Shown here piece by piece: positions 43,118-63,651 of a DNA stretch of 64,000 bases. Below the pieces are notes generated by a model. That model was given only the letters and a program-made list of their open reading frames with translations, did no database searches and was not told the origin of the DNA. The position numbers and the translations under genes are program-made. This stretch comes from a virus (Duplodnaviria > Caudoviricetes), in IMG/VR virus record IMGVR_UViG_3300028833_000068, positions 32,001-96,000 of that record. One strand, 5' to 3'. The stretch's first letter is position 1. Every line of letters begins with the position of its first letter.

Positions 43118-44428
43118 ATGAAAATCAAAATAACTGAATCACAATATGATAACCTTGTATTGGTTGAAACTGAAAATGCTGCTTTTAAAAGAAGTAATGC
43201 TAAGGATGCCAATCTAAAGCGAATTTGGAAAGTGATTGACATGAAACAAAAACAACTTTATAAAGAGGTCTTTGGTGAATTGTCAGAAAAAATGTATGAC
43301 ATTACAGTTGCCAAAGAAAAAAGAATGAAGGGAGTAAAACCAAAAGGAGATTTCTTAAAGATACCAAATAATATGTTCTCAGCTGGAAATGATAAACTTC
43401 CAGCTAGTGTACTAATTGTGAACATGTCTTCCGCTTTAATGTGCCCATCATACTACCTTGGTGTTTGCCAAATCACAAATGGCGCTTGTTATGCAATGAG
43501 AGATGAAAACCAATACTCAAGAGTAGATGTTGGTTCTGTACTTCGAAACAATTGGCAACGTGACCTTATGCATACCCAAATGCTACAACAATATCAACAT
43601 GGCAATAAAAAACCAATGAGAACATTTTTCAAAATTCTAGAAACATATATACAATTGGGAAATGCATATGCTGAAAACTTATATAAGATAGAATTAGAAA
43701 AGATGGAATACAAATATGGAAGAGAATTAACCCAAGAAGAAAAAAATCTATTAAGAGTTCAACAATCTGATAGTAAAATTACCGATATTAGATTGAATGA
43801 AAGCGGTGATTTCCATTGCCAACTAGCAGTAGACCTATGGGCTAAATTCGCTAGAAAAATTAAAAAGAAATATGGCATTAATACCCATGCTTATACAGCT
43901 AGAAATCTTGATTATTCAAAAGCATCACAAGATATGTCCATTAACTATTCACATCAAGGGGATGGAAATGCAAGAGGTGGCTTACCAAGAAGATTTAAAG
44001 CTGTTAGTGATGCAGAGTTTAATTCACTAGAAGGTGGTAATGAGGTTAAAAACCAACAGCCAATACTAGGACAAAAACCTAATGGCGAATTCTTCTATAA
44101 ATGCCCTTGCAGTAATAAAGAAACTAAATGCGATAGATGTGGCGTTTGTTTTGCCCCAAATAAGACTGGAACACCATACACCATTTATGTTAAATATCAT
44201 GGTGCTGTAGCTGCAAATGGACTCAAAAACTTATTTACAGCCAAGGAAATTAATAGTGTAATGAATGCACTAAAGACAAATGGATGGGTTACAGATAAAG
44301 AAATGAAATCTAGAAATAGAAAAGACAACGTTAAAAAACTTAACGACTACTCAGAAAAAATATTGGCACAAAGAAATGGAAAAGCACCAAAAGATGAATT
44401 TAATACTGAAAAAGTTGGAAAAGAATAA
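43118..44428 (+). CDS. GP88-like Cys-rich (radical-SAM-like) protein with N-terminal KIKITESQ leader
   Basis: GNDKL, CPS....C.....CYA, IRLNESGDF, YT, CPC...CDRCGVC. Confidence 0.7.
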   Translation: MKIKITESQYDNLVLVETENAAFKRSNAKDANLKRIWKVIDMKQKQLYKEVFGELSEKMYDITVAKEKRMKGVKPKGDFLKIPNNMFSAGNDKLPASVLIVNMSSALMCPSYYLGVCQITNGACYAMRDENQYSRVDVGSVLRNNWQRDLMHTQMLQQYQHGNKKPMRTFFKILETYIQLGNAYAENLYKIELEKMEYKYGRELTQEEKNLLRVQQSDSKITDIRLNESGDFHCQLAVDLWAKFARKIKKKYGINTHAYTARNLDYSKASQDMSINYSHQGDGNARGGLPRRFKAVSDAEFNSLEGGNEVKNQQPILGQKPNGEFFYKCPCSNKETKCDRCGVCFAPNKTGTPYTIYVKYHGAVAANGLKNLFTAKEINSVMNALKTNGWVTDKEMKSRNRKDNVKKLNDYSEKILAQRNGKAPKDEFNTEKVGKE

Positions 44429-44458
44429 AAGGCTAAGAAACAAAACTTAGCCTTTCTT
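44428..44458. terminator. bidirectional terminator
   Basis: AAAGGCTAAG-N-CTTAGCCTTT. Confidence 0.7.
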
Positions 44459-44460
44459 AT

Positions 44461-44958
44461 TTATTCTAACAACTTCTTATCATCATATTTGTCAAATATC
44501 TTCTGAATCATATCCATAGTTCCAAGAGTTGCCTTCATAATCATCTCATGAATCTTCATTACCTCATTCAACTTGGTCTTGTTGGACTTCCTCTTACCAA
44601 ATAATGAATCCTTATATTCAGACACAATCGCCTCATATGCTCTCTTCCATTCAGGATGTAGTTCAAAAATTGGTAGACAATACTTCATGAACTCAGCAAT
44701 CTCATCAGTCTTCTTCTTGCGATGCTTCTTAGGCCAATAATCAAGAATAATGTCAAAATCATAATCCAACATGATTTGGCTCTTATCATTTTCATCCAAT
44801 TGATTCATCACTTGTTCCTCAATTGACGTTGGGGGTAAGTCAATACCATGCCACTTCTGAGCTGGAATTACCTCAAACTCATTCTCAATCGTAATATTTC
44901 TAGTAACAATTCTACGGTCACTAGTAATTGCCTTAAATGTTATTATTGTTTTATTCAT
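44461..44958 (-). CDS. hypothetical protein
   Basis: ORF track. Confidence 0.7.
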   Translation of the reverse strand: MNKTIITFKAITSDRRIVTRNITIENEFEVIPAQKWHGIDLPPTSIEEQVMNQLDENDKSQIMLDYDFDIILDYWPKKHRKKKTDEIAEFMKYCLPIFELHPEWKRAYEAIVSEYKDSLFGKRKSNKTKLNEVMKIHEMIMKATLGTMDMIQKIFDKYDDKKLLE

Positions 44959-44962
44959 ATTT

Positions 44963-45193
44963 TTATCTGTACGTTGGTTTATATTCCCACCTATCTATCA
45001 CTTTGTTATACTTGTTATACACCTCCACGTTGAAGCATTTAACTTTTATCAAGTTCTCCTTAGAAATTCTTTCGGAAATATAGTTATTGACCTTATCGAT
45101 GATGTTGTCTTTGCAGCCAATAATCGTTTTGGTAAGAACTGTCTTACGAGACCAACTAGGTTTAACTAATGCTTCTCTTATAATCGCTTTCAT
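44963..45193 (-). CDS. hypothetical protein (start corrected to MKAIIRE)
   Basis: Promoter at 45212-45242 lies inside the longer ORF call. Confidence 0.65.
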   Translation of the reverse strand: MKAIIREALVKPSWSRKTVLTKTIIGCKDNIIDKVNNYISERISKENLIKVKCFNVEVYNKYNKVIDRWEYKPTYR

Positions 45194-45211
45194 ATTTATT
45201 CTTTTTTTTTG

Positions 45212-45256
45212 CAAATGTACGAAAAAAAATTGGAGTGACAAAATATCTACTCCAAT
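45212..45256 (-). promoter_or_regulatory. Bacteroidota-type promoter fused with a terminator hairpin
   Basis: ATTGGAGTAGATATTTTGTCACTCCAAT-T7-CG-TACATTTG. Confidence 0.65.
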
Positions 45257-45377
45257 CTTTAATATATTTTAACGAATATACTCTATTAGTCTATCTATAT
45301 CATTAAAATATAAATCATCATCTTTCATGAACTTATTATATTTTTCATCTAAAAAATATATGAGTTTTGCCATAATG

Positions 45378-45425
45378 CAAAGATATAAAAAAAATCTGAG
45401 AATTCCAAATAAATCCCCAGATTTT
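45378..45425 (-). promoter_or_regulatory. Bacteroidota-type promoter fused with the neck-gene terminator hairpin
   Basis: AATCTGGGGATTTATTTGGAATTCTCAGATT-T6-A-TATCTTTG. Confidence 0.7.
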
Positions 45426-45432
45426 TATTCTT

Positions 45433-46584
45433 TTATCTTATATACATTCCCAAAGGTTTCTTCTTCAACACTTCCATAAGCTGATTATTGAGTTCAGCTT
45501 GATTCTTCATGAGATTCCACGGGAGCATTTCATCCAACCTCTCCTTCAACTCATTTAATACAGTCTCCTTCTCAGCCTTCCCTTGTTCAAGCAACATGTT
45601 GTAGTCCATTTGAGCTTCAGCTTCGGGAATCTTAATTTGTCCCGAAAAAGTCCCTCGGATTATACCTAATAGAATCTTCGCTTCTGCCACAAGCAAACGT
45701 CTAATAATCTGTTGAGTTGGGTTGTTCATCAACTCGTACCTCATCTTGTCCAACGGCACTTGGTCTGGCGTTATAATTACATCATCCTTGTTCTCAATCC
45801 TACAAAGGTCAGCATCTTCTGCACTTCCACTAACATCATAGTAGGTATACCAACAAATGCAATTGTGGTACTTACGCCACCCCCATGTGTCATCAGCAGC
45901 AACACCACCAATCATGTTTGGTGAACCTGGAACGGACATGAGGTGAATCAAGTGTGTACCATCTGGACCAGCTGTAACCTTATAAGCTAAGTCACCCCTT
46001 AGCATGGAGTTCTTATACTTCAAGTCTGCTGCCATTAAAGCCGTGTCATAGACATTGCCCACATAGAAGCCTGTCAAACCACCCATGTAGGATAGATTGC
46101 CAAGTTGTCCAAAACCACCACCAATACCAGTATCAAGTGTACCCAAGTTACCGTATAAAGCAGCCTTGGTTGTTGATGGCGTGATATATAAAACCTTATT
46201 GATTTCACGTCCAGCTGGAACAACGTACACTTGTTTGCCTTTTTCAATTCTGAAGAAATCTTTTTTAAGTTCATAGTTACCACGTTGCTGTAAACCTACC
46301 TCTCTACTGAACCAATAACTGTAATCCCTACTCCAATCCATTGTACGCACGGTCATTGCATAAGCAAGTTCATTTGCGTTTTGGAATTGGAATGTGTTCT
46401 TGCTTTGGATATTAAGCCATTGAGTTTTTAGCACCCAATTCTGTACCTTTTCTGAGTAATCGCCTATTGCTACGTCCAAGAGGTCACAAAGTTGCTCGTC
46501 CTCAAGTTGAACCTTACGCACTGGACTTCCCAAAAGTGTCCTCGTTAATTTAAATAAGTCTTTTATTTCTTGACTAAGTACCAT
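45433..46584 (-). CDS. neck / head-tail adaptor protein (T4 gp13-like)
   Basis: LLGSPVRKVQLEDEQL, AEAKILLGIIRGTFSG, EQGKAEKE.L..EL. Confidence 0.8.
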   Translation of the reverse strand: MVLSQEIKDLFKLTRTLLGSPVRKVQLEDEQLCDLLDVAIGDYSEKVQNWVLKTQWLNIQSKNTFQFQNANELAYAMTVRTMDWSRDYSYWFSREVGLQQRGNYELKKDFFRIEKGKQVYVVPAGREINKVLYITPSTTKAALYGNLGTLDTGIGGGFGQLGNLSYMGGLTGFYVGNVYDTALMAADLKYKNSMLRGDLAYKVTAGPDGTHLIHLMSVPGSPNMIGGVAADDTWGWRKYHNCICWYTYYDVSGSAEDADLCRIENKDDVIITPDQVPLDKMRYELMNNPTQQIIRRLLVAEAKILLGIIRGTFSGQIKIPEAEAQMDYNMLLEQGKAEKETVLNELKERLDEMLPWNLMKNQAELNNQLMEVLKKKPLGMYIR

Positions 46585-47515
46585 ATTTATTTATTTCATT
46601 TATTAAATCATTATTATTACTATAAATAGTATCTAAATAATGATTTGGTATTTCTTTTTCTTTAGAAAAATAAAATAATTTTATCCCATTATTTTTACAT
46701 TTTTCAAATTTTTCTTTATCTTTTTTAACAGTATATTCATATTTCTTATTTCCACCAAAATATTTGACGGGTTTAAAATGTTGTATTCCTTGGTATTCGA
46801 TTCCAACTTTTTTAGATGGTATATAAATATCAATACTTTGTCCTTTAAGCCAATCTGTTTTGTATTGACAAATAACTTCTTCACCATAATATTTCTTTAA
46901 TATGTCAAATAACAGCATTTCATTAATATTATGTTCCTCATGACATTTAGGGCAACCAACACCAGTCATGTGAGAATGTGGTGACTGCCAGAATTCTCCA
47001 TGCTCTGGACATATAATACAAACCTTATCATCAGTCCCTTTACATTCTACCTTTGAGTAATCATATTTATTATTATGTACCTTTTTTGACCTTTTTATAA
47101 AAATTTCGTTAGTTAATTTAGCCACTCTAGAACACATTTGACATCCTTGACCTCTTAAATGCTTTTCTGGAGTTTTCTCAAATTCTCCATGTATCGAGCA
47201 TATTATTATCACTGGAGTCTTTTCATTAACATATTTAACTTTTGAATAATCATACTTATCGCCATGAACTTTTTTAGCTCGCTCTATGAACTCTTCTGTA
47301 GTATAAGCGAAACTTCTGTGATTACAATATTTGCACCCTTGCTTTTGATTAATATGATTATTAAATGGCATTTCAAAAACATTTCCACAGTTTTTACAGA
47401 TTATTTTATTTTTAGCAAATAAACCTTCATTCTCCACCAATGAGTAGTCATACTTATTACCATGAACTTTTTTAGCTCGCTCTATCATTTCTAAAATTGT
47501 TAATCGTTTACTCAT
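46574..47515 (-). mobile_element. free-standing homing endonuclease (DUF723-like repeats plus C-terminal Vsr/PD-(D/E)XK-like domain)
   Basis: 3x F.ERAKKVHG.KYDYS...C..HG.F...H..G.GC..C; IDIYIP...IEYQGIQHF. Confidence 0.85.
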
Positions 47516-47585
47516 AATATTTTCTTTTTATATATAAATATAAAGGTTTACTAAAAAGTGCGCCTAGTAAAGTGTAATTTATATA

Positions 47586-47615
47586 AAAAAAAACAGCAAC
47601 ATTTATTGCTGTTTT
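47586..47615. terminator. intrinsic terminator
   Basis: AAAACAGCAA-CATTTA-TTGCTGTTTT. Confidence 0.65.
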
Positions 47616-47790
47616 ATATTACCTCGTTTATTTCATCTTCTGCGTTTCTCTGTATGAATCTTCTCATGCTACGCTTCCTATACTTGATAAGCAAATGTTG
47701 TCTATCAGTTTTACTAAACCTTCTGCCATCAGTAGTCCAATGTTCTGTGAGAGCATATTTAACTCTTCTTCTCATTGCCATGTGTTTCAT
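47614..47790 (-). CDS. small basic hypothetical protein, 58 aa (MKHMAMRRRVKY...)
   Basis: Manual translation; fills the gap before the terminator. Confidence 0.5.
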   Translation of the reverse strand: MKHMAMRRRVKYALTEHWTTDGRRFSKTDRQHLLIKYRKRSMRRFIQRNAEDEINEVI

Positions 47791-48154
47791 GCTGCTTTTT
47801 TCTTTCCTCCATTTTTTCCTTTATAAGTTTTCTTTGTAATCTGTCTGCGATTATTTCTGCATGACAGCATTTAGGTTTGCAGAAGCATTGAAGGTATATA
47901 TCCTCACCATTTTTATAGTGTTCATATATTTCATCAAATGCCTTTGTAAGCTCTGTATTTTTGCCGTAGGCTGCGTCAAAATACTTCTCGTAGGCTTCTA
48001 CTGCCTCGTCCCTAGTTTTGAACGTGAGGGTCTTAAAAACGCTTTTAACACCATTATGAGAAAACGGATTACCTAATGGGCTAGGTCTAGCAACATAGAA
48101 ATTGTTAGGTTCTGATGTATGGTCTTCGTTATGACTATTATAAACGTATATCAT
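47759..48154 (-). CDS. DUF4326-like protein
   Basis: YVARPSPLGNPF, RDEAVEAY, L.CFCKPKCCHAEII. Confidence 0.85.
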   Translation of the reverse strand: MIYVYNSHNEDHTSEPNNFYVARPSPLGNPFSHNGVKSVFKTLTFKTRDEAVEAYEKYFDAAYGKNTELTKAFDEIYEHYKNGEDIYLQCFCKPKCCHAEIIADRLQRKLIKEKMEERKKQHETHGNEKKS

Positions 48155-48600
48155 ACTTCTATATCCTTTAGTTTATAGTCTACTATTTCTCCATTATAGA
48201 TTCTCTTACCACTATTTTCAATATACTTTTTGAGGAAATCATGCCATAATCTAACATAGGTATCAACGTATACTATATCGTTAGTATATTTACCCCAAGG
48301 ATTCAATCTAACTTCCCTATTACGATAATCCCCATTATAACGTTTAAATGTTACTAACCCACTTTCTATGTGTTTTAAGAGATTACCCATAAATCCATCA
48401 AGGGTTCTGCCTCTTCCCTTACTAAGGAAATCTTCAACGAATGTATTACTACCTTTTGGAAAATTGGTTCTACGTATTCTTCCTTGATTTCTCCAATATG
48501 ACCCAGCGTATTCGCCCTTAAGGATTCTGTGAAAGTAGATATGCCCATCAAGCGATAGTTCTCTTTTCAAGAACATATAAAATACTTGTGTTGCTGTCAT
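48151..48600 (-). CDS. hypothetical protein
   Basis: ORF track. Confidence 0.7.
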   Translation of the reverse strand: MTATQVFYMFLKRELSLDGHIYFHRILKGEYAGSYWRNQGRIRRTNFPKGSNTFVEDFLSKGRGRTLDGFMGNLLKHIESGLVTFKRYNGDYRNREVRLNPWGKYTNDIVYVDTYVRLWHDFLKKYIENSGKRIYNGEIVDYKLKDIEV

Positions 48601-48603
48601 AGT

Positions 48604-48807
48604 TTAGAAATTATTGTCAATATACCTAAGAATCTCATTGATTTCCTTCGGTGATTTCTTTGAAAACTTATCAAATAACTTAATCGCTAGGTTTCTGTCA
48701 ATCTCATTGCTCTTAAATGCCTCTGCTGCATTTAATATAGCTTCAACTTGGTCACTAGGCATATTCAACATTGATGCCATAGTCTTCTTTAAAAACATAT
48801 TTGCCAT
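48604..48807 (-). CDS. hypothetical protein
   Basis: ORF with promoter at 48827-48858. Confidence 0.7.
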   Translation of the reverse strand: MANMFLKKTMASMLNMPSDQVEAILNAAEAFKSNEIDRNLAIKLFDKFSKKSPKEINEILRYIDNNF

Positions 48808-48826
48808 AATCTTTGTATTTTTTTTG

Positions 48827-48858
48827 CAAAGATATGTAAAAAAAATGAAATTAACAAA
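48827..48858 (-). promoter_or_regulatory. Bacteroidota-type promoter
   Basis: TTTG-N20-TATCTTTG. Confidence 0.7.
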
Positions 48859-49070
48859 TTTTTAGAGATTTAATTTCCCTAAAGCATCATATAAATCCTT
48901 AATCTCTTCCTTTGAAAACTTTACCTCATCAATATAATGGCCATAAACATCATATACAGCCAATGTGTACTCTAACTTGTAATCATCACAAGTTAACTCA
49001 ATCTTATTATTATTAATTATATCCATATCTAAATCCAATTTAGAATAAATATAACAATACTTTCAAAAAA

Positions 49071-49104
49071 GAAAAATGCAGCTACTTTCACAAGCAACTG
49101 CATC
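49071..49104 (-). terminator. intrinsic terminator after the tRNA operon
   Basis: GATGCAGTTGCTT-GTGA-AAGTAGCTGCATT-TTT. Confidence 0.7.
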
Positions 49105-49138
49105 GTTAAATATGATTATTCATGGTGTGCCAACGCTA

Positions 49139-49345
49139 TTAATCCCACCCCCATATTTCATGGGACATAGGAAATCGCATCGACATCCTCTCTAGAGATT
49201 CATCCTTAAACCATTTCTTCTGCCTAAAGTACCACTTGAACTTCTTATGGGACTTACTCATCACGTGAGCATGATAGAACTTAACCTTCTTCCCCAATTT
49301 ATTCCAATACTTCTTTGGAGTATTTTGTTTATTTCCATTAGACAT
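49139..49345 (-). CDS. small basic hypothetical protein
   Basis: ORF track. Confidence 0.6.
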   Translation of the reverse strand: MSNGNKQNTPKKYWNKLGKKVKFYHAHVMSKSHKKFKWYFRQKKWFKDESLERMSMRFPMSHEIWGWD

Positions 49346-49361
49346 TCTTTATGATTTTTTG

Positions 49362-49432
49362 TAGCGATTGAGGTAGTCGAAACCCCACTTCCTGGGCCAA
49401 ATCCAGACGTGCGACCGCCACACCGAACCGCT
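49362..49432 (-). tRNA. tRNA-Gln(UUG)
   Basis: Acceptor AGCGGTT/AATCGCT; anticodon arm TCTGG-ATTTGGC-CCAGG; T loop TTCGACT; C at position 8. Confidence 0.85.
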
Positions 49433-49475
49433 TGGTCTACAGATACTTACGTATTTGTTTCTCTAGTAAATTTTG

Positions 49476-49557
49476 TACCCTCGGAGAGACTCGGACTCTC
49501 AAGCCTTACGGCACTAGATCCTTGGTCTAGCGTGTCTGCCAATTCCACCACAAGGGC
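49476..49557 (-). tRNA. tRNA-Leu-like with anticodon AAG (atypical C33 and C55)
   Basis: Acceptor GCCCTTG/CGAGGGT; D loop GGAATTGGCAGA; arm CTAGA-CCAAGGA-TCTAG; variable arm GCCGTAAGGC; T loop TCCGAGT. Confidence 0.75.
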
Positions 49558-49567
49558 AAATAGTTTG

Positions 49568-49654
49568 TAGCTCTGAATGGAGTCGAACCATCACAAGGCA
49601 AATGCCTTATACATTTTGAGTGTATTGCGTCTCAACCATTTGCGCCACAGAGCC
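49568..49654 (-). tRNA. tRNA-Leu(CAA)
   Basis: Acceptor GGCTCTG/CAGAGCT; arm ATACA-CTCAAAA-TGTAT; long variable arm; T loop TTCGACT. Confidence 0.92.
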
Positions 49655-49808
49655 ATATAATATATTTTTCCTACACGAAGAGGCTACCATATTGTCTGAC
49701 CAACGTCTCTTCTCCTTCAGCATTCCTTCGTCAGAAAGGTCATGCCATCCAATCCCTCCCTCGGAAAAAAAATTGCATTACAAACTAGTATTTACCCAAT
49801 TCGTAATG

Positions 49809-49840
49809 CAAAGATATGAAAAAAAATTCAAATAACCAAA
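49809..49840 (-). promoter_or_regulatory. Bacteroidota-type promoter of the tRNA operon
   Basis: TTTG-N20-TATCTTTG. Confidence 0.75.
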
Positions 49841-49854
49841 TTATTTAATAAGAA

Positions 49855-49986
49855 TTAACGAATTATTCGTTTTTCTGTTCTTCTAATAGTACCTCCAACG
49901 CTTCCGTTGTTAAGTGGGTTACTTGGTCTCTGTACTGCTTGTGTTGCAGCAGTATTGTTCTGTTTATTTTTACAACCGCATGCCAT
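49855..49986 (-). CDS. small protein, 43 aa, MACGCKNKQNN...RRTEKRIIR
   Basis: Manual translation; AT-rich ribosome-binding context; MxCxCK N-terminus. Confidence 0.7.
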   Translation of the reverse strand: MACGCKNKQNNTAATQAVQRPSNPLNNGSVGGTIRRTEKRIIR

Positions 49987-50012
49987 AATATTTTTCTTAT
50001 TTAATAACGTTA

Positions 50013-50474
50013 TTATTCTTCTGTATAATAATAATCCTCTTCGCTTGGAATATCTAATGGATTATAATTAATTTCCATTATGCTTTCTAAAGCTTTCTTA
50101 ACAATTCCATTGTCATGTATTGGAATGCAGCGTCCATCATTGTTGCAGTATTCAATACTTCCAACTTCAATTGTTGGATTATCTATTATTTCATCTGGGT
50201 CATCTGGCACATCATAGCTGTTACTTCTCATACCTCTTTTCATGTATGGGTCTCCTATAACTTCAAATGTTATATTAGCAAATCTACCACCTTGCAATTC
50301 AATATCTGTATCATTTTCTCCAAGAATTACATCCAATCGTCCTTTTTTGGCTACAGATTGGGCGATAGATTGCAAGAGCAAGTTGTTATCTTGTTGTTCT
50401 TGCAGCACCATTGCAACACTACGTTGGACTAGATTGTGCAAATCTGACTCAGTTAATCTTATTATCTTCTTCAT
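50013..50474 (-). CDS. MKKIIRLTESDL-leader protein (acidic cargo)
   Basis: Shared leader; upstream TATTTAT-N5-AAATAG at 50489-50506. Confidence 0.8.
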   Translation of the reverse strand: MKKIIRLTESDLHNLVQRSVAMVLQEQQDNNLLLQSIAQSVAKKGRLDVILGENDTDIELQGGRFANITFEVIGDPYMKRGMRSNSYDVPDDPDEIIDNPTIEVGSIEYCNNDGRCIPIHDNGIVKKALESIMEINYNPLDIPSEEDYYYTEE

Positions 50475-50527
50475 TGCCTATATTTATACTATTTCTCTAA
50501 TAAATATAACATCTTTTGAAAAAAGAA

Positions 50528-50740
50528 TCAAGATTTATCAATATTTTCCAATATTTCTTTAGCTAACTCGCTCTCATAGCACCAACGTTTATAGCATATT
50601 GGCTTTACAAGTCCTCTATTGCTATAAAACTTGCCATCCACCCACCAAGCAGATTCTACCTTGTTTCCACGTGTTAAAACTAATATTCTACCACGTCTAC
50701 AATCTGGCTTCTCATTCCTCAGTGTCTTCCAAATGCTCAT
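50528..50740 (-). CDS. small hypothetical protein (DUF551-like W...P pattern)
   Basis: WKTLRNEKP...ILV...RWCY. Confidence 0.55.
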   Translation of the reverse strand: MSIWKTLRNEKPDCRRGRILVLTRGNKVESAWWVDGKFYSNRGLVKPICYKRWCYESELAKEILENIDKS

Positions 50741-51329: not shown

Positions 51330-51354
51330 AAATGATGTTTATATAAAAATAATC

Positions 51355-52186: not shown

Positions 52187-52855
52187 TTAAGACTTCTTAA
52201 CAAGTACTGAATCTGCCAATCCGTAATCTACAGACTCTTGTCCTAACAGCCAATAGTTTCTATCACAATCGTGTTCTATTTGTTCAAAAGGTTTATTGGT
52301 ATTCTTTGCAAGTATCTCATATAAATCCTTCTTGCATCGTCTTGTTTGTTCAAGTTCAATCTCCATATCCTTCAAAACTCCTTGCATCCCACTGCTCACT
52401 TGATGTATCATCACTCTGCTATGTGGTAAAACGAACCTCTTACCTTTTGTTCCACAAGAAAGTAATACTGCACCCATTGATGCTGCCATACCCAAACAAG
52501 TAGTTGATACATCAGACTCAATAAAATTCATCGTATCAATTAATGAAAGACCAGCCAAAACATCTCCTCCAGGAGAATTGATGTATAAACTAATATCTCT
52601 ATTATCAACTGAATTTAGATACAACATCTGTGCAACCATTGTATCCATTGAGATACTATCAACTTGTCCACTCAAAAATAGTATTCTGTCTTGAATCAAG
52701 CGCGAGAAGACGTTCATCTCACTGACTCGCATAGCAGAATCTCGCTCTTCAATGATGGTTGGGTATACCATGTCCTTAATCTTATCATCAATAACTGATG
52801 GTGAAATGTTTGCCTTATCAATTGCAAACTTCCTAAAATCTTCTATTATTTCCAT
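52187..52855 (-). CDS. clpP: Clp protease proteolytic subunit (catalytic Asp position is Asn)
   Basis: SRLIQDRILFL, YINSPGG, GMAASMG, RVMIHQ, CDRNYW. Confidence 0.96.
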   Translation of the reverse strand: MEIIEDFRKFAIDKANISPSVIDDKIKDMVYPTIIEERDSAMRVSEMNVFSRLIQDRILFLSGQVDSISMDTMVAQMLYLNSVDNRDISLYINSPGGDVLAGLSLIDTMNFIESDVSTTCLGMAASMGAVLLSCGTKGKRFVLPHSRVMIHQVSSGMQGVLKDMEIELEQTRRCKKDLYEILAKNTNKPFEQIEHDCDRNYWLLGQESVDYGLADSVLVKKS

Positions 52856-53201: not shown

Positions 53202-53891
53202 TTACTCATTTGTCAATTTCTTTCCAATTTCCTTTTCAAAGTCAAGTGTATTCTTGGTTGCTGCTGCATCCAAATTAAGCGCAAATGTCTCATTAAGTGA
53301 ATCCATTGTAGCTCCAGCGGATGCTAACTTTCTGTATGATGTTGTTACACAATTAATCATGTCATAGTTTCCACCAAGTTTGCTTCTTGAACTGTAGCTC
53401 CTATACTTGAATCCCAAATCATCAGCGGCCTTTGTAGTTGTGATATCACAGCCTATGTATAGGAACTCCCAAGAATATGTCTCAGTTTGAAGTTTAATTT
53501 TATCTTGTACTTGCTTCAATGTATATTCTCTTGATGCGTTTTCCTTACCATCTGTGAACACAGCAACTAGAACCTTTCCTGGTCTGTCTTCCTCTCGCAT
53601 TGCTGCAAGCCATTTTCCTGTATTATCGATGGCTACTCCCAATCCATCGTTCATGGCTGTCATTCCATCTGGGTTATACTTAAATTCCTCAATATCGTTT
53701 ACGTCCTTTCCAACAAACACCTCATCTACTCTATCACTGAATGTATAAAGTGAAACTGTGCATTTACCTTCCTTATTTGCTTTTTGTTCATCGATGATTT
53801 TTTTAACACCGCCTACTACATCTTCTTTAGATGTATACATACTACCACTCTTATCTATCACCATTGTGATATGAATATAATCATTTCTCAT
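53202..53891 (-). CDS. von Willebrand factor A (vWA) domain protein
   Basis: IDKSGSM MIDAS motif, G.TAMNDG, FTDGKENASRE. Confidence 0.9.
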   Translation of the reverse strand: MRNDYIHITMVIDKSGSMYTSKEDVVGGVKKIIDEQKANKEGKCTVSLYTFSDRVDEVFVGKDVNDIEEFKYNPDGMTAMNDGLGVAIDNTGKWLAAMREEDRPGKVLVAVFTDGKENASREYTLKQVQDKIKLQTETYSWEFLYIGCDITTTKAADDLGFKYRSYSSRSKLGGNYDMINCVTTSYRKLASAGATMDSLNETFALNLDAAATKNTLDFEKEIGKKLTNE

Positions 53892-56360: not shown

Positions 56361-56433
56361 ATTGAATTGATTTTTTTTGCAAATATACAAAAAAAAGTTG
56401 AACTGATAAAATATCAATTCAACTTTTAACATT

Positions 56434-56988
56434 CTATAACTTAAATGGTGTATCAAAATCCTTTAACATTGGATGGTTCTTGTCCTTTTCTGACAAGATT
56501 GCCTCATTCAATGGTATTTGCCAATCAATCCCCAATGATTCATCCAATATATTGATTCCACCATCCACTTCTGGATGATAAAACTCATCACACTTGTATT
56601 GGAACACAGCCTCATCTGACAACACTGCAAAACCGTGTGCAAATCCCTTTGGAATGAAGAATTGTCTATGATTATCTTCTGTAAGAAGTACTGATACGTG
56701 TTCTCCATATGTTGGACTACCTTTTCTTAAGTCAACTGCAACATCTAATACCTTTCCCTTCACGCATCTTACAAGTTTTGATTGTGAATATGGTGGTTTT
56801 TGGAAATGTAAGCCTCTCATGACACCGTATGATGATTTGCTTTCATTGTCTTGAACAAAATTGATTTTTCCAACCTTTTCTTCAAAGTCTCTTTGTGAGA
56901 ATGATTCAAGGAAATATCCTCTTTCATCTTTAAAAATCTTTGGTTCTATAATCACAACGCCATCAATATTAGTCTTTACTACGTTCAT
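56434..56988 (-). CDS. rmlC: dTDP-4-dehydrorhamnose 3,5-epimerase
   Basis: DERGYFLE, QDNESKS, RGLHFQ, DVAVDLRKGSPT, IPKGFAHGF, LSEKD. Confidence 0.96.
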   Translation of the reverse strand: MNVVKTNIDGVVIIEPKIFKDERGYFLESFSQRDFEEKVGKINFVQDNESKSSYGVMRGLHFQKPPYSQSKLVRCVKGKVLDVAVDLRKGSPTYGEHVSVLLTEDNHRQFFIPKGFAHGFAVLSDEAVFQYKCDEFYHPEVDGGINILDESLGIDWQIPLNEAILSEKDKNHPMLKDFDTPFKL

Positions 56989-57241
56989 AATCTGTGTTTT
57001 TAACAATTATCATAACTCCACCAAAGTTGATGTTTATTTCTCCTTCTGATGGTATAAATTTATCTTCAGCATTTATTCTATTCCTATAGAACAAATCTTC
57101 GTCAACTCTTTTAAATTCCTCATCATTAAGATAGATGTACAGTTTGGATTGTTGAGCAACCCCATCCTCCTTAAGTCTTGAGGAAACCATTTGACCAAGT
57201 TCAAAAATGCTCATTGTTCCAAACTTAAAATTTTCTTCCAT
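56969..57241 (-). CDS. hypothetical protein
   Basis: ORF track. Confidence 0.7.
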   Translation of the reverse strand: MEENFKFGTMSIFELGQMVSSRLKEDGVAQQSKLYIYLNDEEFKRVDEDLFYRNRINAEDKFIPSEGEININFGGVMIIVKNTDYERSKD

Positions 57242-57245
57242 AACC

Positions 57246-57464
57246 TTAATTAAATAAATTCAAAAAACAATCTATCTTATGTTTAAATTTTTGCCAAAAT
57301 GTTAGTTCAACTTTCTTTTTTCCAGTTAACACATCATGCATATCCTTTCCCATTGAACCATTTAACTGTTCTGCAATATTCCATTGCAGTCCTTTAAGAG
57401 CCAATGCGTCCATTCTCTTCTCACTTTCGTAAGTAGTCACTTCTCTGTTATATTCACTATCCAT
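57246..57464 (-). CDS. hypothetical protein
   Basis: ORF track. Confidence 0.7.
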   Translation of the reverse strand: MDSEYNREVTTYESEKRMDALALKGLQWNIAEQLNGSMGKDMHDVLTGKKKVELTFWQKFKHKIDCFLNLFN

Positions 57465-57819
57465 TGTTATTACTCCTTTCTAACGCTTCTTGTAGTGTAT
57501 TTATTAGCCAATTACTACTACTAACAAACGCTCCATCTAAAAATATTGTTACATACCAATATTCTAATGGCAAACCAATCATAATCATTGGTGTTAATAT
57601 TACACTTGGTAATATCCATAAATTAAGCGCTGACATTCCAAATCCTAACCACCACCCAGAACATATAAAACAAGAGAGCATTTCATCCAATTGTGGATGA
57701 ATCTTTTTAGCTATTTCGTGCATTTTAACAAAACAATGAAATGGACCATTTGCATAAATTATAGTATTTGCAATACCATAACAAACAATCATATAAATAA
57801 CTAATATTAACCAGTACAT
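57457..57819 (-). CDS. DUF1360-like membrane protein with CxxC
   Basis: TM helices; GPF...LSCFICSGWWLG. Confidence 0.7.
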   Translation of the reverse strand: MYWLILVIYMIVCYGIANTIIYANGPFHCFVKMHEIAKKIHPQLDEMLSCFICSGWWLGFGMSALNLWILPSVILTPMIMIGLPLEYWYVTIFLDGAFVSSSNWLINTLQEALERSNNNG

Positions 57820-58706
57820 ATTTCAATTAATTCATTTATCTTATTTTCTAACTTGTCATTATAATTTATATAAAACAAATTCACATTATTCTCAGTACAT
57901 AATTTCAATTTATTTCTATCTAAATTTTTTCTATGCTCAAACATTTTTTCTCCACCAAAAAATTCTATTGGCTCAAAATGCTGTATACCTTGACATTCTA
58001 TTGCTATATCATATTTTGGTAAATAAAAATCTAAGCTTTGTTTACCTAGCCATGATAAATTTTCCTTCTTACAATGCCATATGTATTTTAAATTATTCTT
58101 TTCCAATTCTCTAGCAACTTTTTCTTCCAAAATACTGTTTTGACAATGTGGACATCCAACACCTCTCATATGATGCATAGGATAAGTATAAAATTCTCCA
58201 TGTTTAGAACAAATAACGCATACCTTTGTTTTCTGATTTACATATACTGTTTTACTATAATCATATTTCTCACCATACAATTCTTTGCAAATTGAAATAA
58301 ATTCATCTGTCGTATAATTATGTGTCAAAGAACATTTTTTGCATCCATAACCTTTTAAATGATGTTGTGGAGTTTGCCAGAACTCACCATGAATAGGACA
58401 AATTATGCATACTTTAGTTTGATTATCCACATAATTTACATTAGAATAATCATATCTATTACCGTGAATTTCCTTTGCTTTATTTATAAATTCTTCTAGT
58501 GTATACTTAGTGCTCCTATGTGAACAATGCGGACAATTCTGACCATGCAAATGGTCTAAAGGACGTTGAAAAAAGCTTCCATGAATTTTACAAACAATTT
58601 CAACTGGTTTTTGAGTTGATTCATATATGACTTTCGAATAATCATATTTATCTCCATGTACATTTTTAGCTTGTTCAACAAACTCCTCAGTTGTCTTTCT
58701 TTTCAT
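57807..58706 (-). mobile_element. free-standing homing endonuclease (DUF723-like repeats plus Vsr/PD-(D/E)XK-like domain)
   Basis: 3x T.EEF...AK..HG.KYDYS...C..HG.F; LDFYLP...IECQGIQHF. Confidence 0.85.
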
Positions 58707-59181
58707 TATCTTTTATTAACTCTTTTATATCTTCATTATTTTCGATTTGAGGCGCTTCTTGAGCTTTCTCAGCCTCTTTCACTTTCTTCGTGGTCTTCTT
58801 CCTACCCTTGGGCGTTTTAACGCTCTCAGTGACAAATTTAATGGTCTTAAGCTCATCATATGGAAGCTGTGAGAACAATTCCTTAAGCTCCTCAACTTTT
58901 GTCTTAAGTAGTTGAAGTTTAAGCACAATTTCATTGTTTGCCCTAATCGTTTCTTCAATTAAGTCAAACATATCCTCATAGGTTGTATCCTTGGAATCAG
59001 CATAATAATACGTCAAACTCTTGTCATTATCTCCAGCGGTGACTTTTATTCTCCCATCAGCACTTGGGTATGCTTTCCACCTATTGGGGTATATAACCTT
59101 TACCATTAAAGCCTCATTATACATTTCAATACCTCTAAAATAAGGCTTCATATCATTCATCCTCTCTTGTAACGTTCTCAT
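58687..59181 (-). CDS. coiled-coil hypothetical protein (start MRTLQ)
   Basis: KLQLLKTKVEELKELF. Confidence 0.7.
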   Translation of the reverse strand: MRTLQERMNDMKPYFRGIEMYNEALMVKVIYPNRWKAYPSADGRIKVTAGDNDKSLTYYYADSKDTTYEDMFDLIEETIRANNEIVLKLQLLKTKVEELKELFSQLPYDELKTIKFVTESVKTPKGRKKTTKKVKEAEKAQEAPQIENNEDIKELIKDNEKKDN

Positions 59182-59182
59182 T

Positions 59183-59374
59183 TTAGAAACCACATATTAA
59201 CATTGTTAGGATATAAGCAAACGCAACACCAAATACTATTAATTCATTCTGTGTTGCAAGTTTTCCACTCTTCAATCTAAATACACTAACCACATGGAAT
59301 ATATCAACAATCAGTGTAAGTATTGCCATTATAAATAAAAATACCTTAATTTGTAATAATAAAGTTGCTATCAT
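59183..59374 (-). CDS. small two-helix membrane protein
   Basis: Two hydrophobic helices. Confidence 0.7.
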   Translation of the reverse strand: MIATLLLQIKVFLFIMAILTLIVDIFHVVSVFRLKSGKLATQNELIVFGVAFAYILTMLICGF

Positions 59375-59461
59375 AATATTTTTTTTTTAATTTAAATATA
59401 TTATTGCCTTATAAAATATAAAAAAATTGCTCAACAATTAAAGTATTGTTAAGCAATTAAT

Positions 59462-60157
59462 TCATTTCTTTGTTAAATCAAATGTGGCTGAAACGCCTAC
59501 CATTAATCCAAACTGTTTATTCATAATGTCATATCCTCCAGTAACTGCTGGTCCTATTGCCATTCTATCCCATACTGTCCTTTTTTGTTTCTTATGGAAC
59601 ATTGTAACATCAGATATTGTGCCACCATTGTTGCTTCCAATTGTTGCGTGATTCATTCCATTTTCTTCTTTATTTACAATTGTAAACTTATTCTTAACCT
59701 TTGCTTGGATTGAATACCATTTTGGTTCTGTATATGAATTCACGTTTAACTTATATTGAAATGTATCGTTTGGTTCACTTGTATATTCATATGTCCTAGC
59801 CACTTGAGGAATAGTAATTGGAATTGTATCATAAACCGTACTATCCTTTATGTTTGGTTTAGTGGTAACATTGCCTGTATTATAGTCTTTTTGGTGTGTA
59901 AATTGGATTACATAATCGAGTTTATCCTTATATTTCTTCAAAGAATCATATAATTCAGCATTTTCCTTTTTTAAAGCAGAGAAAGCTTTACTATAATAAA
60001 TCTTGTTATAATTATTCAAACTATCATAGTATTCAACTTCTTCTATAAGTTTTTGTGATGACTTATATTGCCTATTAGAATACCATAATAATCCGCACGT
60101 AATTAAGAATAAAACTAAAACAATATAGAAACATTTTTGTTTAGTAAATTTCTCCAT
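59462..60157 (-). CDS. putative spanin-like protein
   Basis: N-terminal TM, coiled coil, C-terminal amphipathic beta hairpin; adjacent to the holin-like gene. Confidence 0.45.
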   Translation of the reverse strand: MEKFTKQKCFYIVLVLFLITCGLLWYSNRQYKSSQKLIEEVEYYDSLNNYNKIYYSKAFSALKKENAELYDSLKKYKDKLDYVIQFTHQKDYNTGNVTTKPNIKDSTVYDTIPITIPQVARTYEYTSEPNDTFQYKLNVNSYTEPKWYSIQAKVKNKFTIVNKEENGMNHATIGSNNGGTISDVTMFHKKQKRTVWDRMAIGPAVTGGYDIMNKQFGLMVGVSATFDLTKK

Positions 60158-60158
60158 A

Positions 60159-60920
60159 TTACTTTCTCCTATGCTTTAATTGTGCCTTCAAATCAAGAAG
60201 TTCACTTAGTTTACCACCGCATTCTCTCATCTTTTCCTCAATCAACTTATCATCTGGTAAATTTCCACTCTTATGAAAAGATACACCCAAGAATCCTAAA
60301 GGTTCTTCAATACCATTAAGGAATACTATTGATACATATTCTCCACCATCTTCTTTTAATTGTTTTGCAAAGTCATAATCGATTTTTTCAATGTCATCAG
60401 AAGTCCCAATGAAGAACTTATGCTTATACATATAGTTTGGATATGCATACATGTTCAAAGGAACATCTTGATACTTTTTATAGCATCTATTAACTCCTTT
60501 TTCTCTATTGGCAAATTCATATGACATATCTGCATATCTAAATGGTAATCCACTGATATTCTTCTTACCATTATGCAACTCGAATATGAATACTCTGTCT
60601 GCGTCTAGAGTATATAAAAGAGCACCAAGTAAATGTTGAACTTGTGGTGTAACAATAAAATCCCTTATATCTTCTTCTGTTGTGTCATCTGCAATTTTCT
60701 CAGCAGTTTTGGACAAAAATACCTCATTCTTAACAATATTATATGTGAAGAAACCAGCTAAACTTGTGGCTAGAAAGAAAAACATAACGAAATAAACTTT
60801 TAAAATCTTTGTCCACTTTGCATTTGCAATTGTTGATGTCAACCATTTTGCAGCTTGAATATGGATTGGTTCTTTTTTACCACTAGGATTTATATTAATA
60901 TTTACATCTTTGTTTTTCAT
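60159..60920 (-). CDS. T4 T-like holin (single TM plus GAF-like domain)
   Basis: TM at about aa 40-60; DADRVFIFELHNG...SGLPFRYADMSYE; PLGFLGVSF. Confidence 0.6.
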   Translation of the reverse strand: MKNKDVNININPSGKKEPIHIQAAKWLTSTIANAKWTKILKVYFVMFFFLATSLAGFFTYNIVKNEVFLSKTAEKIADDTTEEDIRDFIVTPQVQHLLGALLYTLDADRVFIFELHNGKKNISGLPFRYADMSYEFANREKGVNRCYKKYQDVPLNMYAYPNYMYKHKFFIGTSDDIEKIDYDFAKQLKEDGGEYVSIVFLNGIEEPLGFLGVSFHKSGNLPDDKLIEEKMRECGGKLSELLDLKAQLKHRRK

Positions 60921-60952
60921 TTCTACTATTATATATTAATTAAATCTTGTTA

Positions 60953-61774
60953 TTAATCCATTAACTTTCTAGCCTTTTTGACCATATCAGAGAACTCATT
61001 GTTTTCTTGGATTCTAAAACTAGCTGTTGATGTCTTTGCTTCAACACTCTTATAACCCCAAAGTTGCTTCATTCTCTCCTTCTGCTCATTAACCAAAGTC
61101 ATATTCACTTTCTTAGTTACCATTGGCTCTTTTTTATGCCATTCTACCAAGTATTGGTTATCTGAACTATCCTTCATAATAAATTTATTGCCTTCAGTCT
61201 TATACTCATCTGGTATTCTTGTCATCATATGTCCTTCAGAAAGGAACTGAGTATTCTTAAAGGTTAACATCTTGATTTTCTTTGACTCTCCCATTGTTTC
61301 TCTTTGTTTTTCTACTTCATTTTTATTTAATTCACGTCCTGTTAGACCAATTTCAACTGCTGCATCCTTGCCTTTCTTCACAGCTTCAGCATGGTCTTTT
61401 GCTGCATCATAAATCTTACCATCCTTATCAAAGTCTGCGTTTCCAAACTCATCATTCTTGTGCTTATCCTCAGCATCCTTTGAAACATATCCCTTCATCT
61501 GGGACTTAACTCTGTCCTTAAATGGCTTATTGATGTTGTCATACTCCAAGTCATGCATCCCCTTATTGTCAGTAGCATTAATTCCGCCACTAACCTTTTG
61601 GGTTTTGCTTGTCAAACCTCCATCGTACTTTTCAGTTTCTTTCTTGATGTCACTGTAGGCTTTCCTATTAATTTCTGCTGATTCCTTATTACCAAATTGA
61701 ACAGGTTTGAATTCATTCTTGGTCTCTTCGTTTAGAATCCTTCTTAATTCTCCTACGCTAATAGTTGTTATCAT
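60953..61774 (-). CDS. charged putative internal head/core protein
   Basis: ELRRILNEE N-terminus; repeated hydrophobic-x-E sites; VNEQKERMKQL. Confidence 0.55.
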   Translation of the reverse strand: MITTISVGELRRILNEETKNEFKPVQFGNKESAEINRKAYSDIKKETEKYDGGLTSKTQKVSGGINATDNKGMHDLEYDNINKPFKDRVKSQMKGYVSKDAEDKHKNDEFGNADFDKDGKIYDAAKDHAEAVKKGKDAAVEIGLTGRELNKNEVEKQRETMGESKKIKMLTFKNTQFLSEGHMMTRIPDEYKTEGNKFIMKDSSDNQYLVEWHKKEPMVTKKVNMTLVNEQKERMKQLWGYKSVEAKTSTASFRIQENNEFSDMVKKARKLMD

Positions 61775-61787
61775 ATCTTTTTTATTT

Positions 61788-61934
61788 TTAAAATTGATTT
61801 ATGTATAATCCTCTTAACATCTGCTCAAACATGAGCCTTGTTTGTTCTTTACCACTAATTTTTTCTTCGTGAAGTTTATCATCAATTTCACGAACCTTCT
61901 TAATGGTATCTGCATTTGCTTCGTAATCTATCAT
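61788..61934 (-). CDS. small hypothetical protein, 48 aa (MIDYEANADTIKK...)
   Basis: Manual translation; fills the gap. Confidence 0.55.
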   Translation of the reverse strand: MIDYEANADTIKKVREIDDKLHEEKISGKEQTRLMFEQMLRGLYINQF

Positions 61935-61937
61935 AGT

Positions 61938-62264
61938 TTACTTCTGTCTATTCATTGAGATTGAACCACCTCTTTCTAAAGCTGGTTTCATATCAACTTG
62001 ATTTGTCTTTGCTTGGGTAACATCACCAAGATTATGCTTTTGCCTCATAATTGGTTCTTTCCAAGGGTTTCCTCCCACTCCTTTTTTTTTGTTCTTTCCA
62101 CTAAAAGCAGGATATGCAACACCACCAGATGAATCTGAATTACCAACCATAAGTCCAGCACTATTGGTAGCACCATCACCACCTTCTTCTTGTAATATCC
62201 TATTCACAGCTTCTGCAACAATCTGATGCAAATCGCTCTCTGTTAATCTTATAATCTTTTTCAT
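61938..62264 (-). CDS. MKKIIRLTESDL-leader protein (Gly-rich cargo)
   Basis: Shared leader. Confidence 0.8.
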   Translation of the reverse strand: MKKIIRLTESDLHQIVAEAVNRILQEEGGDGATNSAGLMVGNSDSSGGVAYPAFSGKNKKKGVGGNPWKEPIMRQKHNLGDVTQAKTNQVDMKPALERGGSISMNRQK

Positions 62265-62267
62265 AAT

Positions 62268-62621
62268 TTAAAATAAATTATTAATTACCGTACCAATTGC
62301 TTCCTCTTGGTCACAATCATTTTCACTCCAATATTTACATATTTGATTTATTAATTCATCTGCCTCATCACCTTGCAAGAAATAATCCTCACCTTGTTCA
62401 CCTTCTATTGATATATATGACATGCTTGTGTTTATCTCAACGTGATAATAACCATCACAAACATCAAATTTGCCATTCATATAAGAAGCATCACCATTAA
62501 GATATGGATTATAATCACTTGACAAATCCATTGGGTCGTTAAACTCCTTCAATATTCTTTTGACAGATTCATTAACAATATTACGTAAATCACTCTCCGT
62601 TAATCTTATAATTTTCTTCAT
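62268..62621 (-). CDS. MKKIIRLTESDL-leader protein (acidic cargo)
   Basis: Shared leader; upstream TATTTAT-N4-AAATAG at 62634-62650. Confidence 0.8.
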   Translation of the reverse strand: MKKIIRLTESDLRNIVNESVKRILKEFNDPMDLSSDYNPYLNGDASYMNGKFDVCDGYYHVEINTSMSYISIEGEQGEDYFLQGDEADELINQICKYWSENDCDQEEAIGTVINNLF

Positions 62622-62720
62622 ATATCTAGACAGCTATTTACATATAAATATTCCATTTATGTTAAAATTGTTAAATCTCTTGGTTATTTATTGGAAATTT
62701 AGTATATTTACAAAAAAAAT

Positions 62721-63137
62721 ATGATAGCAGATTATAACACAATGCCAAGAATGTTTAGCGAATGTAATAAGAAATATTTCAATCGTGAACTTCCAATGCC
62801 AAAATTTGGTTTAATTAATAAAACTAGTATTTTGGCAAGATTTGAATTCTTCAAAGAAAAAGAAGGGGAGAAAATCAAACATAAAAAGATTTTGTTTTCT
62901 GATTGTTTTGACTTTGAAAATAGCGTTTTTGAGAATCTTATGGTACACGAGATGATTCACTATTATCTTGCTTGGAATGGAATTAAAAATCCTACAGAGC
63001 ATAATAAAGAATTTATGGATATTGCCAATAAATTAAATGCTGAATATGGTTTAAATATTACAAAAAAAGTAGATGCATCCTCATTCAAAAAGACTGAAAA
63101 TGCACCTAAAAGTATATTTAAAATCCTATTTGGGTAA
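62721..63137 (+). CDS. SprT-like zinc metalloprotease
   Basis: NKKYFNRELP, LMVHEMIH, EHNKEF. Confidence 0.85.
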   Translation: MIADYNTMPRMFSECNKKYFNRELPMPKFGLINKTSILARFEFFKEKEGEKIKHKKILFSDCFDFENSVFENLMVHEMIHYYLAWNGIKNPTEHNKEFMDIANKLNAEYGLNITKKVDASSFKKTENAPKSIFKILFG

Positions 63138-63138
63138 A

Positions 63139-63651
63139 TTAAGCACCAACTGTTTGATTTTTCCAAGCATTAAAGTTTGCGCTAGAACGTCCACCAGCAC
63201 TATTAAGTTGATTAATACAACTTTGAACTGCTTTAATTGTTGTTGCGCCAGCTACTCCAGGAGTTCTTTGTGCTTGTTGTAAGAAATTATTTAATGCTTT
63301 AATCGCATTGTTTTTTGCTGACTGAATATTTGTATTTGCTGCTCCAGCCTTAACTGTATTACCAACATTATAGGCTGTTTGTCTTGCAGTATCATATGCT
63401 TGACCAACCTTGTTCGCAGCAGTGTTATAAGCATTACCAATTGCTTGTCCAGCTCTATTCATTGCACCACTAGCTGCATTCATGGCATTGCCACCAAATT
63501 TCTGCATACCACGTCCAGCCATTTGTCCTAATGCTTGAGCACCTCCCTTAAAAGAATCCCAAAAGCCTTCTTGAATCATATAGTTTCTAACAGCATCCTC
63601 AACAAGGAAATGAAGGTCTTGTTCTGTTAATTGAATTTGTTTATTATTCAT
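63139..63651 (-). CDS. leader-bearing Gly/Ala-rich amphipathic protein
   Basis: IQLTEQDLHFLVEDAV...IQE-GFWDSFKGGAQALG; 11-mer-like helical repeats. Confidence 0.75.
   Translation of the reverse strand: MNNKQIQLTEQDLHFLVEDAVRNYMIQEGFWDSFKGGAQALGQMAGRGMQKFGGNAMNAASGAMNRAGQAIGNAYNTAANKVGQAYDTARQTAYNVGNTVKAGAANTNIQSAKNNAIKALNNFLQQAQRTPGVAGATTIKAVQSCINQLNSAGGRSSANFNAWKNQTVGA

Follow-up and report, generated by a model that had tools for sequence, protein, structure and literature searches.

Four genes in a 64,000-nucleotide stretch of viral DNA start with a common leader of about 26 residues and encode proteins that are unrelated past it, which raises the question of what this leader does. The stretch, referred to here as the window, comprises bases 32001–96000 of one 171,411-bp viral contig (G000; 33% G+C) with a completeness of ~53% according to CheckV. 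On balance, and with modest confidence, we read the leader as one occurrence of a portable capsid-address and cleavage module, the tag, of uncultured ~410-kb T4-like jumbo phages of rumen Prevotella. We favor this reading because the two invariant glutamates of the tag, E9 and E26, fit the pattern L/I-x-E and conservation stops at the second of them, because relatives of G000 encode a gp21-type prohead protease together with a gp23-type capsid protein, and because tagged genes adjoin the protease gene in these relatives. It is further favored because tagged genes share an upstream ATATTTAT box with head and tail genes, and because structure prediction puts the tag outside folded domains while modules fuse or split at its borders.

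A 26-residue motif recurs in otherwise unrelated proteins

The initial annotation of the window had described four genes with a common leader and had interpreted the leader as a capsid-loading signal. All four open reading frames (ORFs) were found on the minus strand, each with the quoted leader at its start (Table 1). The annotation had also proposed scanning the genome and its relatives with a profile of the leader. Following a pattern scan, we built such a profile from the motif copies and ran it over all ORFs of the contig, whose 213 genes and their proteins served as the reference set. Ten copies were detected in nine ORFs with E-values between 1e-13 and 1e-22, and many more in relatives. 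Since the next-best ORF of G000 reached only E = 0.6, recurrence of the motif is far beyond chance. The window holds four of the ten copies; the other six are found at contig positions 109092, 133077, 133839, 140157, 140748 and 149642. Past the leader the proteins are indeed unrelated: outside the motif the nine proteins comprise 14 segments, among which no pairwise similarity was seen (best BLASTP E = 0.07) and whose charge ranges from -18 to +15. Two of the window genes, w117 and w108, are separated by only 3 nt and by sequence appear to form one transcription unit.

The motif has the consensus K-K-x-I-R-L-T-E-S-D-L-H-x-I-V-K-E-S-V-x-R-I-L-x-E and consists of a short basic stretch, K-K-x-I-R, followed by an amphipathic helix. 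In G000 all ten copies agree in T8, E9, L12 and E26. Column statistics were determined for 159 copies from database representatives. Here E9 and E26 are the only positions that are 100% invariant, and a Leu or Ile stands two positions before each of them: position 7 is L in 91% of the copies, and position 24 is L or I in 88%. Further conserved columns are K2 (91%), the run I5-R6-L7-T8-E9, then S10, D11, L12 (97%) and H13, followed by I15, V16, K17, E18, S19 and V20 and finally by [IV]23, [LI]24, x25 and E26. At E26 the information content is 4.3 bits, and at the residues that follow it drops to 0.6–0.8 bits. Synonymous codons vary among the copies (ACT, ACA, ACG or ACC for threonine; TTG, TTA, CTT or CTC for leucine) and the DNA upstream is unrelated between genes, therefore selection acts on the peptide and not on a DNA repeat. 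A DNA repeat or regulatory element spanning the start codons was ruled out on the same grounds.

The tag borders exchangeable modules and is predicted to form a separate helix

The description as an N-terminal leader applies to the four window genes and did not hold for all copies. Four copies in G000 are internal, at residues 144, 153, 295 and 492 of three longer proteins, of which a 607-residue protein contains two. In the 150 best database representatives 128 copies are N-terminal, 136 are internal and 15 are C-terminal; the majority of these representatives have two copies.

Orthologues of the window cargo retain the tag. For w153 there are 210 homologues with 52–98% identity, all of them tagged; in this family the tag is 90–99% conserved and is followed by a variable spacer after E26 and then by a conserved domain. 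An AlphaFold2 (AF2) model of w153 shows a helix at residues 9–44, with a predicted local distance difference test score (pLDDT) of 63–70 for residues 1–30 and about 90 for the beta-rich domain; no matching fold was found in the PDB for this model. In the 607-residue protein AF2 places both internal tags as isolated helices within a low-confidence region that starts at the end of the folded N-terminal part. According to these models the tag is a self-contained module outside the cargo folds. All 120 listed homologues of this protein retain the two internal tags. Tagged modules also occur fused or split at the borders of the tag: in a 210-residue protein of a relative (P0287) another tagged module is fused in front of the w117 cargo and the internal tag is degenerate. 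The downstream neighbor of a tagged gene is another tagged gene or a transposase.

The 607-residue protein has more than 600 homologues and ends in a strongly conserved basic C-terminal tail; its N-terminal part is Dps/ferritin-like with four helices, as judged from weak matches (a Dps-like family in PHROGs). For w170 only a weak match to a tape-measure family of PHROGs was obtained. A protein-atlas search for cargo function returned viral hypothetical proteins only, and scans of family libraries recognized no toxin, delivery or immunity family among the tagged proteins.

A helix of this kind could instead be an uncleaved docking or oligomerization element unrelated to the capsid, which brings proteins to one shared partner, for example a hub protein of the phage or the host, or which self-associates. 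We place limited credence in this possibility. The motif is an idealized amphipathic helix, and a profile search of PDB sequences matched only de novo designed helical repeat proteins. AF2 predicts a free-standing helix, the conserved polar K-E-S would fit a specific interface, and C-terminal copies exist, some with little or nothing past E26. An uncleaved helix leaves unexplained, however, that both invariant glutamates stand at L-x-E and that conservation ends at the second.

Relatives encode a T4-type head protease and capsid protein

Scanning the IMG/VR database with the motif gave matches on numerous viral contigs. Among them are five that are rated complete or near complete, four of ~410 kb (G001–G004) and one of 335 kb (G005). 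The DNA polymerase of G000 is 79–87% identical to those of the four ~410-kb records and 64% identical to that of the 335-kb record, therefore G000 is a fragment of the ~410-kb clade. All five relatives encode a Peptidase_S77/gp21 protease (PF03420, over cut-off, E down to 1.7e-26) and, in a gene adjoining that of the protease, a Gp23-type major capsid protein (PF07068, E about 1e-64). PF03420 was also over cut-off in G008, G009, G013, G014 and G015. All motif-bearing IMG/VR records with a completeness of 80% or more encode the protease; motif-bearing contigs of 83–110 kb are 29–48% fragments. An uncleaved helix likewise leaves unexplained that the viral records sampled are confined to phages having a gp21-type protease. 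The capsid protein of the clade matches 2,562 T4-like GenBank records, all below 60% identity; the clade is without a close cultured relative.

The protease of T4, gp21, cuts after L/I-x-E (PMC9026906), and the maturation site of gp23 in the T4 sequence is L-T-E↓A. In BLAST alignments the region of this site falls near H-L-I-Y-E↓A-T-A of the clade capsid protein, and a distant relative has L-I-S-E↓A. The N-terminal region of the clade capsid protein contains four or five [LIV]-x-E sites. Because the gp23 site aligns near this sequence of the capsid protein, the clade protease is expected to share the cut specificity of gp21, with the capsid site as a prediction.

In the relatives a gene for a very acidic, scaffold-like protein lies between the protease and capsid genes; no Pfam family matched it. 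We considered whether the tag had been copied from this scaffold and dropped the idea, as a likeness seen by eye at the scaffold N-terminus scored at most 5.6 bits. A ClpP-family protease gene (Pfam E 2.3e-63) is located in the window, close to a gene with a von Willebrand A-domain. ClpP was rejected as the head protease, as the head protease of the clade is the gp21-type gene beside the capsid gene.

Tagged genes lie beside the protease gene and behind a late-type promoter box

In G001–G004 we found the same gene order: the acidic scaffold-like gene, the divergent protease gene, immediately after it a tagged gene of 132 residues and then a tagged gene of 110 residues. Two to three motif copies lie within 5 kb compared to 0.3 expected. 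In G005, 7 of the 31 copies are located within 10 kb of the head module (1.9 expected, P = 0.002). In G002 and G004 an inserted endonuclease-like gene separates the protease gene from the 132-residue tagged gene. The window itself holds two genes of this type, ~300-residue paralogues built of repeated zinc-ribbon units (Pfam DUF4379 and DUF723), which look like mobile endonuclease genes.

Upstream of genes the 8-mer ATATTTAT is ~8.5-fold enriched, usually 24–33 nt before the start codon. All nine tagged genes of G000 belong to units headed by this box compared to 87 of the 213 genes overall (41%); counted as seven units this corresponds to a P of about 0.002. In relatives the box is likewise found in front of the genes for capsid, scaffold, sheath and protease, and in G000 it stands before the baseplate operon. 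DNA polymerase, other replication genes and many small genes are found behind a TA.CTTTG box of the Bacteroidota -7 type. The late promoter of T4, TATAAATA, was considered as the element in question and rejected: it stands upstream of only 7 of the 213 genes, and the enriched box is ATATTTAT. The distribution of the box suggests that tagged genes are co-expressed with head genes and follow late-type timing. Neither this promoter class nor the position beside the protease gene is explained by an uncleaved helix.

The window also contains a run of very large genes (305–2235 residues) with almost no family matches, the exception being a match to a baseplate wedge protein. Presumably this run is the baseplate and fiber module.

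The motif is widespread in metagenomic proteins

We searched 1.84 billion representative proteins with a 33-column profile. At E ≤ 1e-3 the matches comprise 6,924 clusters worldwide, of which 729 reach E ≤ 1e-10. Among the best 150 representatives one match, a fish adhesin, is spurious; ten database matches were looked up, and besides the adhesin these are nine unnamed metagenomic proteins. Families covering the motif were found in none of Pfam, PHROGs, NCBIfam and PADLOC, and a full-text literature search for motif strings returned nothing relevant.

Three shorter variants of the leader had been listed in the initial annotation, at positions 43118, 61774 and 34684 of the window, and none is significant by the motif profile. 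The peptide at 34684 gave no score. In the family of the protein starting at 61774 some orthologues reach 8–10 bits, which is marginal (E about 0.005–0.02 at Z = 213). At 43118 starts a Cys-rich protein of 436 residues with a match to Pfam GP88, the supposed Fe-S enzyme cargo. Its peptide stays below significance, the tag on this protein was thus not borne out and an Fe-S enzyme is not established as tagged. Orthologues of this protein share a 17-residue N-terminal peptide ending in [LI]-x-E, and the conserved peptide of this GP88-like family may be a separate short leader.

An IS1595-family transposon carries tagged genes in host genomes

We also scanned prokaryotes, with one genome per species, and found 30 bacterial loci with the motif. 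Almost all of them belong to rumen Prevotella, Prevotellaceae or Bacteroidales, and three are from isolates, namely Segatella bryantii DSM 11371, Prevotella sp. MA2016 and Prevotella sp. tf2-5. At the two isolate loci whose neighbors were read, what look like ordinary bacterial genes surround the tagged gene and no phage genes were seen. The capsid-loading interpretation of the initial annotation had not foreseen such copies in host transposons.

In at least 15 of the 30 bacterial loci the tagged gene is arranged tail-to-tail with a gene for a 325-residue transposase, the two stop codons overlapping at TTAA. The transposase matches DDE_Tnp_IS1595 with E 8.6e-43 and additionally contains a zinc ribbon. 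Terminal inverted repeats (GGCAACTATATA... and GGCAATTATATAG...; GGCAAC/TTATATA...) enclose 2.3–2.8 kb, in which three genes are found, a small one in opposite orientation, the tagged one and that of the transposase. An 8-bp duplication, TAAACTAA, is present at one locus, L122. The transposon-borne tagged gene often has an extra N-terminal part of 90–270 residues. A 26-nt inverted repeat between the start of the motif and the flank of the insertion sequence (IS) at L121 was discarded as an element boundary, as it is not general and the true element ends lie elsewhere.

Between transposon loci only the ends, the transposase and ~100 bp over the motif and leader are conserved, and the parts flanking the motif are exchanged. 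Homology is interrupted at the motif as well as at the end of the IS; for example, L122 and L126 share 97% identity as far as the motif end and diverge after it. Such breakpoints would also be expected if the peptide were a functionless by-product of a recombination or insertion site acting at the DNA level. We regard this as highly improbable: synonymous sites are free while the four residues of the G000 copies and the two glutamates of the 159 copies are invariant, and the motif extends over about 6,900 clusters at the protein level.

Intact or decayed copies of the transposon are also present in phage contigs, and one host cargo shares 99% identity with a cargo from a jumbo-phage contig on which the S77 protease is encoded as well. 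In the simplest view, the transposon shuttles tagged genes between phage and host DNA. In G000 itself, neither a transposase nor terminal repeats nor other transposon remnants were found. The four window genes are stable phage genes and not current transposon passengers.

The host loci bear on how the tag is to be understood. Copies in host chromosomes without any phage would fit an uncleaved helix. They would also fit a motif that belongs to the mobile element, i.e. a conserved joint of an IS1595-family passenger gene which moves between Prevotella and jumbo phages and acts in phage-host conflict as sensor, decoy or saboteur. The tail-to-tail transposase, the inverted repeats with the duplication at L122, the breaks in homology and the nearly identical host and phage cargo all speak for this explanation, as does the existence of host immune proteins that sense prohead proteases (PMC12991175). 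We nevertheless consider it unlikely. With its ten copies G000 shows neither transposase nor terminal repeats, the tagged families of the window are stable, vertically conserved phage genes, and the host passenger proteins match no PADLOC defence profile. Moreover, this explanation still requires a head-machinery tag and so extends the capsid-address reading instead of replacing it. A further reading, in which the tag serves as a 'password' for the head machinery of Prevotella jumbo phages, is rather improbable: the transposon would exploit the tag, proteins made from tagged genes in host chromosomes would be cut by the prohead protease of an infecting phage or packaged by its prohead and so act as sensors, decoys or saboteurs, and the elements would seed phages with injectable cargo.

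Table 1. Positions of tagged genes, promoter boxes, transposon loci and other features mentioned in the text. Coordinates refer to the window unless preceded by a locus number.
Feature	Position	Strand	Remarks
Tagged gene w153, 153 residues	50013–50474	-	Tag = residues 1–26 (50397–50474), then acidic beta-rich domain; profile E 2.7e-14
Tagged gene w108, 108 residues	61938–62264	-	Tag = residues 1–26 (62187–62264), then Gly/Ser-rich basic tail; profile E 3.9e-16
Tagged gene w117, 117 residues	62268–62621	-	Tag = residues 1–26 (62544–62621), then acidic domain, net charge -18; profile E 1.9e-15
Tagged gene w170, 170 residues	63139–63651	-	Divergent tag with one-residue insertion, residues 1–28 (63568–63651), then basic part rich in Ala/Gly/Asn/Gln; profile E 1.3e-13
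Putative late-type promoter box ATATTTAT	50500–50507	-	33 nt upstream of w153 start codon
Putative late-type promoter box ATATTTAT	62644–62651	-	30 nt upstream of w117 start; heads w117-w108 unit
607-residue protein with two internal tags	L005:7807–9630	-	Contig 139807–141630
Very acidic scaffold-like protein	L088:3–1154	-	Equivalents in L089–L092
S77 protease of G003	L088:1291–2049		
IS1595-family transposon loci	L101–L128		For example L104:4726–7514, L122:4895–7387; phage loci L061, L066, L079
Doubtful short variant	43118–43168	+	N-terminal peptide of GP88-like protein; profile 6–7 bits
Gene of GP88-like protein	43118–44428	+	
Doubtful half-motif	61715–61774	-	Start of 273-residue protein; 4.7–6.3 bits
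ClpP-family protease gene	52187–52855	-	
Von Willebrand A-domain gene	53202–53891	-	
Zinc-ribbon-repeat paralogue	46574–47515	-	
Zinc-ribbon-repeat paralogue	57807–58706	-	
Run of very large genes	9346–34684	-	
Baseplate wedge match	29446–31449		Within the run of very large genes

Comparison with known systems

In T4, a capsid-targeting sequence (CTS) is present on IPI, IPII and IPIII, which are internal proteins, and as propeptide on Alt and is removed by the prohead protease gp21; the CTS can be transferred, and diverse proteins with a CTS are found in related phages (PMC9026906). The tag described here resembles the CTS in that it is shared by small T4-type phage proteins which are not related otherwise, and in that it ends in L/I-x-Glu. 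Like T4, the clade has genes of the gp21 and gp23 families, and its tagged genes are late-type by promoter box. C-terminal propeptides exist in T4 as well, on Alt, and can be compared with the C-terminal copies of the tag. In contrast to the CTS, the tag has two candidate cut sites, is often present twice per protein, is attached to thousands of cargo families and is carried by a transposon into host genomes.

The giant phages related to phiKZ offer a second parallel. These are jumbo phages with many packaged proteins, and their gp21-related proteases, gp175 of phiKZ and gp245 of SPN3US, process propeptides of head and ejection proteins (PMC9026906, PMC5694885), cutting after Glu in many proteins of the head interior. 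Propeptides of the phiKZ type have several redundant cut sites (PMC9026906), comparable to the two candidate sites of the tag. They differ in following the rule S/A-x-E and in belonging to a different lineage with a different capsid type, and a single shared 26-residue tag has not been described for them.

A short conserved motif at the border of exchanged modules is also seen in other systems. Polymorphic toxins have junction motifs, e.g. VENN of CdiA, at the border of recombining variable modules, and MuF-domain toxins are thought to travel in phage heads. The tagged proteins share this architecture and differ from polymorphic toxins in that no delivery domain, toxin domain or adjacent immunity-like gene was recognized and in that the motif is flanked by variable parts on either side. 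Finally, host copies and some phage copies resemble IS1595-family elements with passenger genes (PF12762/PF12760) in having a transposase, terminal inverted repeats and an 8-bp target duplication. The ten copies in G000 are unlike such passengers in the lack of nearby transposase and repeats, and the tag is not part of the transposase.

A proposed capsid address and cleavage model

We infer a route of docking, cleavage, packaging and injection for the tagged proteins. The tag helix would dock the attached protein onto a component of the assembling prohead core. The gp21-type prohead protease of the clade would then cut after one or both invariant glutamates (L-T-E and [IL]-x-E), which would free the cargo inside the head, from where it may enter the host together with the DNA. 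Internal copies of the tag would act as joints of small polyproteins.

Several observations weigh against this model. The tag has 26 residues and occurs at any position of a protein, compared to 10–19 residues and an N-terminal position for the T4 CTS, and no PHROG or Pfam family matches it. L-T-E-S-D-L is a textbook helix start with hydrophobic staple and capping box, and helix capping of the ordinary kind would also account for part of the invariance with no need of a protease. Some C-terminal copies would leave little or nothing to release. In the ~53% of the genome represented by G000 the gp21-type protease and capsid genes were not found, so that the link is made via relatives. The scaffold protein of the relatives does not contain the motif (at most 5.6 bits), and no copy of the motif was found in GenBank phages. 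The shared gene order of G001–G004 is one inherited arrangement, which leaves at most two independent observations of the neighborhood. The NrdD gene, too, has ATATTTAT within 90 nt. In Prevotella chromosomes (three isolates) tagged genes lie inside IS1595-family transposons with no phage genes nearby.

The principle of a CTS is established for T4; the form and scale of the tag and its link to a transposon are undescribed in the literature and family libraries searched. If the capsid-address reading is true, the motif provides a sequence rule for listing probable head-carried proteins, ~6,900 clusters, of uncultured rumen and gut jumbo phages. Such proteins would be candidates for anti-defence and host take-over factors, and the tag itself would be a candidate for a longer, helix-based loading tag in the engineering of Bacteroidota phages. 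The evolution of capsid cargo would be tied to a transposon common to phage and host, a route of cargo exchange that we found in no paper. Should the transposon in addition exploit the tag as a password, this would amount to a transposon-driven arms race fought via a capsid address label.

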